Shown: positions 34,114 to 35,732 of the stretch, piece by piece
Layout of the letters: each line of letters opens with the position of its first letter
Numbering within the stretch: position 1 is the stretch's first letter
Source: Candidatus Magasanikbacteria bacterium RIFOXYD1_FULL_40_23
Lineage (GTDB): Bacteria; Patescibacteriota; Patescibacteriia; Magasanikbacterales; GWA2-37-8
Direction of reading: 5' to 3'
Length of the DNA: 64,000 nucleotides
Assembly: GCA_001783215.1 (NCBI GenBank)
Contig: MFRA01000006.1
Span: forward strand, 57,968-121,967
Notes under the pieces: model-generated
What the model saw: only the letters and a program-made list of their open reading frames with translations
What the model was told of the DNA's origin: nothing
The model's database searches: none
Program-made: the position numbers and the translations under genes

Positions 34114-35732
34114 AGAGTTTGATCCTAGCTCAGGATGAACGCTGGCGGCGTGTTTAAGGCATGCAAGTCGTACGAAGGTGGCTTGTAGCACTTTGAATGT
34201 GAAGCATGAATCATGAAGTAAGAATTAAGAAGCGAAAAATAATCGCTATCATAATTCATTATTCATAATTCTTCGCAAATAAAGTGCTATGAGCTACTTC
34301 AGTGGCAAACGGGTGAGTAACACACTGGTAACCTACCTCTAAGACGAGGATAGCTCTCCGAAAGGAGAATTAATACTCGATGGAAATGCGGGGACACAAG
34401 TCATTCGCATTTAAAGTCGCAAGACGCTTAGAGAGGGGCCTATGTCTGATTAGCTAGTTGGTAGGGTAATGGCCTACCAAGGCTACGATCAGTAGCAGGC
34501 GTGAGAGCGTGACCTGCCTCACTGGGACTGAGACACTGCCCAGACTCCTACGGGAGGCTGCAGTCAAGAATCTTCCACAATGGGCGAAAGCCTGATGGAG
34601 CGACGCCGCGTGCAGGATGAAGGCCTTCGGGTCGTAAACTGCTTTTATAGGGGACGAATTCGTGACGGTACCCTAAGAATAAGAGGTTGCTAACTCTGTG
34701 CCAGCAGCAGCGGTAATACAGAGACCTCAAGTGTTATCCGGATTTATTGGGCGTAAAGCGTCCGCAGATTGTTTGACGGGTCAGGGGTTAAAATCCAATG
34801 CTTAACATTGGAATTGCCTTTGAAACTATCAAACTAGAGGGTGGAAGAGGTAAGCGGAATTGCAAGTGTAGTCGTAATAAGCGTTGATATTTGCAAGAAC
34901 ACCAAAGGCGAAGGCAGCTTACTGGTACACATCTGACGTTCATGGACGAAAGCGTGGGGAGCAAACAGGATTAGATACCCTGGTAGTCCACGCCCTAAAC
35001 AATGCACACTAGATATTGGCAGTATCGACCCTGTCAGTGTCGCTTAAAAAAGTTAACACATTAAGTGTGCCGCCTGGGGAGTACGGCCGCAAGGCTAAAA
35101 CTCAAAGGAATAGACGGGGACCCGCACAAGCGGTGGATTATGTGGTTTAATTCGATGATAAACGAGGAACCTTACCTGGGCTCAACTACTAGCTGCATAC
35201 TTCCAGAAATGGATTTAGCCTTCGAGGGTGCTAGATAGGTGCTGCATGGTTGCCGTCAGCTCGTGCCGTGAGGTGTACCGTTAAGTCGGGAAACGAGCGC
35301 AACCCACGTCGTGTGTTAAATATACACGCGAGACTGCCCGCGCAAGCGGGAGGAAGGAGTGGACGACGTCAAATCAGCATGGCTCTTACGTCCAGGGCTA
35401 CACACATAATACAATGGCCGGCACAATGGGTTGCTAAACCGCGAGGTGGAGCTAATCCCATCAACTCCGGTCTCAGTTCAGATTGAAGGCTGCAACTCGC
35501 CTTCATGAAGTTGGAATCGCTAGTAAACGCCTATCAGCCACGGGGCGTTGAATACGTTCTCGGGTCTTGTACTCACCGCCCGTCACACCACGGGAGTTGG
35601 CAATGCCCAAAGACCCCGCCTTGAGCGCAAATATTTTGCGATCAGAGCGGGGTTAAAGGCAGGGTCAATGACTAGGGTGAAGTCGTAACAAGGCATCCGT
35701 AGCGGAAGCTGTGGATGGATCACCTCCTTTCT
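34114..35732 (+). rRNA. rrs: 16S ribosomal RNA (complete, ~1.62 kb) with a ~90-nt V1 expansion
   Basis: 5' AGAGTTTGATCCTAGCTCAG. Also GTGCCAGCAGCAGCGGTAATAC, ATTAGATACCCTGGTAGTCC, AAACTCAAAGGAATAGACGG, TTGTACTCACCGCCCGTCACACC. 3' GGATCACCTCCTTTCT. Confidence 0.95.
34196..34292 (+). repeat. AT-rich palindromic insertion (expansion segment) in 16S helix 6/V1
   Basis: gaagcatgaatcatgaagtaagaattaagaagcg...cgctatcataattcattattcataattcttcgc. The same word family (tgaatcatgaa / attcataattcata) occurs at 9044-9150. Confidence 0.7.

Follow-up and report, generated by a model that had tools for sequence, protein, structure and literature searches.

A heptamer-armed hairpin of intervening-sequence type in helix 6 of a Magasanikbacteria 16S rRNA gene

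The 16S rRNA gene of Candidatus Magasanikbacteria bacterium RIFOXYD1_FULL_40_23 carries a long hairpin at the tip of helix 6 (variable region V1), and a second copy of this hairpin lies upstream of a bactofilin gene. Both are located in a 64,000-nucleotide (nt) stretch of contig MFRA01000006.1 (assembly GCA_001783215.1, positions 57,968 to 121,967 of the forward strand), which we refer to as the window and number from its first letter. The 16S gene is 1624 nt long, compared with 1533 positions in the Rfam model RF00177. In the Rfam alignment, 105 nt at 34186-34290 replace the 3-nt loop of the bacterial model in helix 6, and the conserved CATGCAAGTCG and ACGGGTGAGTAA are separated by 138 nt. 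The gene and its insert comprise the following parts.

34107..35730, + strand: 16S rRNA gene, full length (RF00177, 1405 bits)
34178..34191, + strand: 5' strand of the extended basal stem of helix 6 (GTGGCTTGTAGCAC), conserved in 5/5 related genomes whatever the tip
34192..34283, + strand: distal helix-6 insert of 92 nt, a hairpin element of intervening-sequence (IVS) type, placed by model alignment, fold and relatives
34195..34235, + strand: left, purine-rich arm, with units GAATGT GAAGCAT GAATCAT GAAGTAA GAATTAA GAAGCGA
34232..34246, + strand: apical mini-hairpin and loop (GCGAAAAATAATCGC), from the minimum free energy (MFE) structure
34247..34276, + strand: right, pyrimidine-rich arm, with units ATAATTC ATTATTC ATAATTC TTCGC, one fewer than in the relatives L054 and L056
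34284..34297, + strand: 3' strand of the extended basal stem (GTGCTATGAGCTAC), from fold and relatives

The region 34170-34310 folds into one long imperfect hairpin of -53.3 kcal/mol, compared with -25.1±3.5 kcal/mol for dinucleotide shuffles (z = -8.1; equally good shuffles, 0/200), with 47 predicted base pairs across 34178-34297. A first-pass annotation of this DNA had described about 90 extra nucleotides in helix 6 as a long imperfect hairpin, and folding of the V1 region bears this out. Because the arms are periodic, they can pair in alternative registers, and the MFE structure is not the same as the centroid. On either strand the distal hairpin folds with similar stability (-22.1 and -24.8 kcal/mol), and the fold therefore does not indicate a selected strand. 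Three contigs of this organism that were assembled independently (L001, L002 and L006) carry the insert without any difference, which rules out an assembly artefact.

The 97-nt 16S insert was aligned to both strands of the whole window with the insert itself masked. Its best local match is at 9057-9132, in the spacer between a histidine kinase gene and the bactofilin gene, with a score of 52 against 29.2±2.45 (maximum 42) for 100 dinucleotide shuffles. This spacer contains the following features.

9021..9049, + strand: promoter-like block TTGGTT-17 nt-TATAAT, kept in the relatives L058, L059 and L060
9057..9147, + strand: second hairpin copy, from alignment, a hidden Markov model (HMM) of the arm (E 1.4e-8) and fold
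9057-9089, 9090-9116 and 9117-9147, + strand: left arm, loop and right arm of the second copy
9161..9634, + strand: bactofilin gene (PF04519, E 2.5e-23), with a start (ATGATATTCCAAAG) kept in relatives

The left arms of the two copies are identical at 25/27 positions. The 5' arm of the intergenic copy consists of the units TGAATCA TGAATTA TGAAGTA TGAATTA AGAA; as an inverted repeat the copy has 26-nt arms that are 85% complementary, and its fold has z = -3.6. In both copies, the 5' arm is built from tandem 7-nt units with the consensus GAAKTAW and the 3' arm from inverse units (ATAATTC and similar), and the short loops between the arms are unrelated in sequence. Heptamer arrays of this type occur at these two places only within the window. 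Within the left arm of the 16S insert, the arm HMM matches 34200-34231 (E 2.3e-7); apart from the 16S sites, it gives two significant matches in the 64-kb window and 50 kb of relatives' DNA. Across the window and the loci of four relatives it found no copies beyond the known sites, except for one weak match at 57865-57879 (E 0.12). Rfam searches, at E<=10 on 8990-9200 and at gathering thresholds across the window, returned no hairpin family, only chance-level microRNA-like matches.

A weaker third relative had been proposed upstream of hisS, at the following position.

39289..39355, + strand: doubtful degenerate relative in the lepB-hisS spacer, with arms in the opposite order to the real copies

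Here the alignment score of 28 equals the shuffle mean, the arm HMM finds no match even at E<=10, and the fold is marginal (z = -2.1; 7/200 shuffles as good). The spacer is a lineage-specific stretch, being 75 nt long in the window and 17 and 3 nt in relatives. The true start of HisRS is the ATG at 39356; the mechanical open reading frame (ORF) start, the ATG at 39338, is probably wrong (relatives begin MPK). The site is at best a decayed remnant of the element, and two of the three hairpin copies claimed in the first-pass annotation stand, the one between histidine kinase and bactofilin being well separated from its shuffles. An explanation by chance likeness among AT-rich sequences of low complexity, or by misassembly, draws on the AT-rich and repetitive character of the sequence and on this third site at background. 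It is rejected by the shuffle tests, including that for 9057-9132, by the identity of the insert in three assemblies and by homologous inserts in two other species, and we regard its probability as negligible.

Database matches of TrmD point to a Candidatus Magasanikbacteria-like CPR bacterium, and the 16S genes of four relatives were located by the synteny TrmD-16S-lepB-hisS. Their helix-6 tips compare with that of the window as follows, with 16S identities that exclude helix 6.

L054: same hairpin with a different loop and one more right-arm unit; 16S 98.7% identical to the window
L056: same hairpin with one more right-arm unit; 16S 98.4% identical
L055: same basal stem with a 28-nt tip, no heptamers and 64 nt less; 16S 98.2% identical
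L057: 92-nt unrelated palindrome (GTCATTCTGAAC... / ...CAGGATGAC); 16S 94.5% identical

The V1 region is thus not of uniform length; a V1 of equal length in all relatives, with no intergenic copies, had been named as a finding that would speak against an inserted element. Across these four genomes the insert is present, absent or swapped, and the tip was thus gained, lost or replaced within a very short time. A home-grown expansion segment, in which the 7-nt unit slipped in place, the product was kept in mature rRNA and the intergenic likeness is convergent, would account for the variable number of units (the right arm in the window is one unit shorter than in L054 and L056) and for a basal stem that is already extended in all relatives. 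Helix 6 is, moreover, a tolerant and exposed site. Wholesale replacement of the tip in L055 and L057 argues against slippage, as does the alignment at 9057-9132, which scores 9 standard deviations above shuffles; further evidence on this explanation comes from outside the window.

The helix-6 palindrome of L057 (7895-7990; GTCATTCTGAACAAAGTGAAGAATCC... / ...CAGGATGAC) is of another kind. A similar palindrome (CATCCTGAGCGAAGCGAAGGATC) is found on an unrelated metagenome contig (L070, ~960-1160), nested in (ACGAATT)n heptamer arms. The two may belong to another hairpin family, one that uses the same sites as the heptamer hairpins.

Other observations concern the 16S gene and its surroundings. 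The region of primer 515F (~34720-34741) reads GTGCCAGCAGCAGCGGTAATAC. Its A in place of the consensus C is a mismatch to the universal primer that could hide the lineage in amplicon surveys. The remaining 28 kb after the 16S gene (window 34107-64000) contain no 23S or 5S gene. Genes for tRNA-Ile(GAT) and tRNA-Val(GAC) lie at 38415-38572, 2.7 kb downstream and past several small ORFs, and the rRNA genes appear to be unlinked.

The position of the intergenic copy raises the possibility of regulatory mimicry, in which a protein that binds helix 6 also binds a look-alike in the bactofilin leader and controls the gene, in the manner of ribosomal-protein autoregulation. The hairpin directly follows the conserved TATAAT, and the TTGGTT-17-TATAAT block would place it at the 5' end of the bactofilin mRNA, in a likely leader; the close match of the left arms also fits. 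A promoter and terminator consensus scan of 8900-9300 called none, the block being recognized by its conservation alone. We read the same spacer in three relatives (L058, L059 and L060), the first two being the genomes of L054 and L056, whose 16S genes carry the hairpin. All three retain the block and the ATGATATTCCAAAG start, but the leader hairpin is absent from every one (0/3), and each has a leader of its own. This makes the intergenic copy species-specific and no conserved regulator. As the family precedes unrelated genes elsewhere, we consider mimicry very improbable.

Outside the window, we scanned one genome per species in GTDB for an arm core with 22 specified bases (GAATNATGAAGTANGAATTAAGAA). 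It matched 47 stretches, mostly from the CPR (candidate phyla radiation)/Patescibacteria (Saccharibacteria, Peribacteria, Woesebacteria, Parcubacteria and others), with further matches in metagenome-assembled genomes (MAGs) labelled Bacteroidota, Nitrospirota, Planctomycetota, Verrucomicrobia, Acidobacteria and Gammaproteobacteria. Viral contigs gave 0 matches. An inverted heptamer arm follows downstream at a score of at least 30 in 20/48 matches, compared with 2/48 upstream controls (median 27 vs 16), which provides an independent argument against chance. The regions around the arm core fold as clean hairpins. At a non-rRNA site in a Saccharibacteria MAG (L047), the arm is identical to 34198-34230 at 32/33 positions. 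In a Peribacteria MAG, a family hairpin lies ~40 nt before the RNase P RNA gene, with a tRNA gene on its other side (L016, 1384-2098). About 17/48 core matches have no inverted partner within 1.2 kb; these solo arms (L008, L014, L017, L021, L024, L026, L028, L040, L046, L048, L052 and others) often continue directly into an unrelated gene's start codon (…GAATTAAGAATTATG…). A literature search with the arm words as strings returned nothing relevant.

A metagenome scan for a 16S flank followed by three heptamer-spaced GAA words yielded 30 loci, about 18 of which proved to be genuine 16S genes whose helix 6 bears a heptamer-array hairpin. The unit type of the window recurs in L066, L069, L081/L088 and L082, and other genes carry GAGGAAT, CGAAATA, AATGAAA, GAACAAT, GGAATTA or CAAGAAG units. 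Across the 240-400 nt available directly 3' of helix 6, these 16S genes are only 59-89% identical to one another. One of them (L076) has a 461-nt helix-6 insert in which (GAACAAT)n arms surround an ORF of the 23S-rRNA-IVS protein family PF05635 (E 5e-30). In L074, whose 16S sequence matches that of L076 at 89% over the first ~240 nt 3' of helix 6, these arms occur with no ORF between them.

The arms of the window family also flank PF05635 genes. In three of the core loci (L015, L039 and L042), they surround a gene of ~130 codons (E 2e-20, 9e-23 and 1e-35) that starts 10-50 nt past the left arm and has its last codons and stop in the right arm; in L042, ORF-bearing and ORF-less copies lie ~450 bp apart. 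In a Saccharibacteria 23S fragment (L045; large-subunit model, 661 bits), the same hairpin, ~115 nt long, occupies the loop of helix 45, the classical IVS site. Together with the arm core shared exactly with 47 stretches in other phyla and the near-identical arm of L047, the enclosure of PF05635 genes by the same arms makes in-place slippage an unlikely origin of the 16S insert.

PF05635 genes that lay by chance in the fetched loci are likewise flanked by inverted heptamer arrays, of (AAATGCA)n/(TGCATTT)n in L034 and of (CAGCAGT)n in L037. For a sample independent of repeat content, the L015 protein was compared with plasmids by tblastn and eight matches were fetched. Tandem short-period arrays are present in the flanks of 7/8 of these genes, and in 6/8 the upstream flank is complementary to the downstream one (scores 29-53, compared with 10-17 for a non-complement control). 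The mean lag-7 self-match of the flanks is 0.60, against 0.37 for window controls (99th percentile 0.57), one case having period 8. The arm units include CAGGAGT, AGGGTGT, AAGGTTY, GGAGATAA, CTGCCYT and CAGAGGA, and the purine-rich arm is always 5'. That the units differ while the arms stay complementary amounts to covariation at the level of the family and argues for selection on the hairpin, not on its sequence. One of the eight genes is the Azospirillum 23S helix-45 IVS. Another (L092), on a plasmid of Picosynechococcus sp. PCC 7003 (NZ_CP016476.1, 126276-127190), lies with repeat-array flanks between cas10/cmr2 and cmr3 of a type III-B CRISPR operon, with a gap of ~35 nt on either side.

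A period-7 array detector found nothing, being too strict for such imperfect units. A heptamer period that would supply stop or start codons in all frames proved to be no general rule (a stop occurs in only ~7/12 unit types), and by inspection a GGAG-like motif is present in about half of the 12 unit types.

The insert therefore shows the hallmarks of an IVS: an rRNA helix lengthened at its tip (105 nt where the model loop has 3 nt), terminal inverted repeats in a long stem (z = -8.1), sporadic occurrence among close relatives (94.5-98.7% 16S identity), and kinship with ORF-bearing IVSs (L015, L039, L042, L076 and L045). It belongs to the arm family by sequence and structure, is distributed sporadically and is linked to the PF05635 cassettes. 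We conclude that it is very probably an ORF-less hairpin element of the IVS/PF05635 class. In the full-length form of this class, inverted heptamer arrays would pair, purine-rich arm first, and enclose a PF05635 gene (S23p, an Avd-like four-helix bundle); the 16S element would be reduced to the arms and the 15-nt apical mini-hairpin. It sits at the solvent-exposed tip of helix 6, on a basal stem whose extension is specific to the lineage, and from this position the hairpin should stack outward and leave the 16S fold undisturbed. In analogy to 23S IVSs, RNase III is likely to cut the long double-stranded stem, leaving a 5' piece of ~80-90 nt and a 3' piece of ~1440 nt joined by the basal stem. 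We lean, without much conviction, towards this excision and a mature 16S rRNA in two pieces; the helix-6 tip may quite possibly be kept as an expansion in the mature molecule. Judged from its distribution, the element is probably mobile and would have spread horizontally or by some transposition or conversion. The copy at 9057-9147 is probably another member of this family that inserted separately and later into the bactofilin 5' leader, where it would be transcribed at the mRNA 5' end.

Several observations weigh against this interpretation. The window contains no PF05635 gene and only two copies of the element, and no RNase III is found among the 20 window proteins scanned against Pfam. We saw no target-site duplication, clean empty site or known mobility enzyme at the sites examined. 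The expectation of fewer than one chance match to the arm core is our own estimate from composition, and since the scan pattern was taken from the window itself, the family census is biased towards members with the exact core.

The first-pass annotation had read the element as a small mobile or expandable palindrome, similar to repetitive extragenic palindromic (REP) sequences or miniature inverted-repeat transposable elements (MITEs), tolerated in an rRNA loop. A dispersed family, variation in unit number and presence or absence among relatives agree with the mobile or expandable palindrome; the REP/MITE label does not hold. A true MITE or REP would be a non-autonomous transposon moved by a transposase, or by a REP-associated tyrosine transposase (RAYT), encoded elsewhere. 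Its small size, inverted terminal arms, the coexistence of ORF-less and ORF-bearing forms and the presence/absence polymorphism are compatible with such an origin. However, inspection reveals no direct repeat at 34192/34283, at 9057/9147 or at the L042 copies, the full-length form encodes PF05635 and not a transposase, copy number in the 64-kb window is low, no RAYT was seen, and viral contigs gave no match, which leaves this origin rather improbable. A group I or II intron was likewise discarded, with no Rfam intron match in the window and a length, 92 nt, that is too short.

The element most resembles the IVSs of 23S rRNA genes (Coxiella burnetii, Leptospira and Salmonella; helices 25 and 45), which share its location at a helix tip, the inverted-repeat stem, the sporadic occurrence and the optional PF05635/S23p ORF. 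In contrast to these, it lies in helix 6 of the 16S gene, is ORF-less, has the unit GAAKTAW instead of GACAGAT and has a sister copy outside rRNA. IVSs of 16S genes of the type found in Helicobacter canis and Campylobacter helveticus are mostly located in another helix, and we liken the insert to them by description only. Such 16S insertions, in these and other species, are hairpins that are reported, in work cited in PMC5041132, to be excised and to leave a fragmented 16S rRNA. In Coxiella, the 23S IVS has a 28-bp stem formed by terminal inverted repeats, with RNase III cleavage within the stem, and tandem GACAGAT heptamers precede the S23p start, their number varying among strains (PMC4990558). 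A survey of CPR rRNA genes describes ORF-less non-intron insertions of <200 bp in 16S and 23S genes; PF05635 ORFs are reported from both genes as well, and its authors suggest that the insertions are IVS-like (Tsurumaki et al. 2024, PMC11270868). The passages searched of that paper make no mention of heptamer-array arms, sequence families or non-rRNA copies.

MITEs, REP elements and Rickettsia palindromic elements are also small palindromes that are tolerated in genes or RNAs and scattered in intergenic DNA. The element described here differs from them in its periodic heptamer arms and its association with a four-helix-bundle gene, and no target-site duplication, transposase or RAYT was seen. 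On Nostoc and Calothrix plasmids, heptamer arrays such as CAGGAGT and AGGGTGT flank PF05635 genes; presumably these arrays resemble the heptanucleotide intergenic repeats of cyanobacteria known as short tandemly repeated repetitive (STRR) sequences. To our knowledge, STRRs have not been described as inverted pairs around a gene. The arm-enclosed PF05635 ORFs also match PF22296 (bAvd-like) weakly and below the curated cutoff (E 5e-7; 30.6 bits vs 40), which recalls Avd, the accessory protein of diversity-generating retroelements. Unlike in those systems, no reverse transcriptase or template/variable repeat was seen near the elements, and the window copies are ORF-less.

A wider reading, which we regard as doubtful when taken as a whole, would group inverted heptamer arrays, whether or not they enclose a PF05635 (Avd-like) gene, as a single class of mobile, self-insulating cassettes that spans the bacteria. 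By pairing, the arms would keep the insert folded away from the host RNA and so permit residence in 16S helix 6, 23S helix 45, mRNA leaders and operons (cas10-cmr3). In that case the 23S IVS would simply be the most conspicuous example, and PF05635 a propagation or maintenance factor acting on heptamer arrays.

The window contains other inverted repeats and several unusual genes. At 17075-17216, 36-nt inverted arms (72% complementary, no Rfam match) nearly fill the spacer upstream of an Fpg-like gene (17215-18087). Two AT-rich palindromes at 32833-32927 (GGAAATGAAAATTGATTTTCATTTC and its partner), between the convergent TrmD and NUDIX genes, probably mark a bidirectional terminator region. Four or five separate inverted repeats fall within ~190 nt at 62624-62811, past a gene that ends at 62612. 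Across the window (1-64000), the + strand carries nearly all long ORFs, and the GC skew is positive throughout. Very large proteins of 1691 aa (26833-31908, with weak fn3 matches), 2470 aa (43129-50541) and 1167 aa (50702-54205) are encoded; the 1691-aa gene is absent in relatives between KH-domain/S16 and TrmD.

IVSs have been known since about 1990, and we know of no explanation for their origin, their mode of spread or the role of S23p/PF05635. Our data suggest that the IVS stem has a general, recognizable architecture of inverted 7-nt repeat arrays with the purine-rich arm first, that one arm sequence is shared almost exactly across phyla, and that ORF-less copies exist outside rRNA genes. 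In the literature searched, the general inverted heptamer-array architecture, the near-identical arms in different phyla and the ORF-less non-rRNA copies seem to be undescribed. The 92-nt insert lengthens 16S amplicons that span V1 and, together with the 515F mismatch, affects 16S surveys of the CPR. If the interpretation is correct, IVSs would be a genome-wide element family open to searching, not an oddity of rRNA genes, and filled and empty sites, together with the binding of the protein to the arms, would offer handles on how they move.

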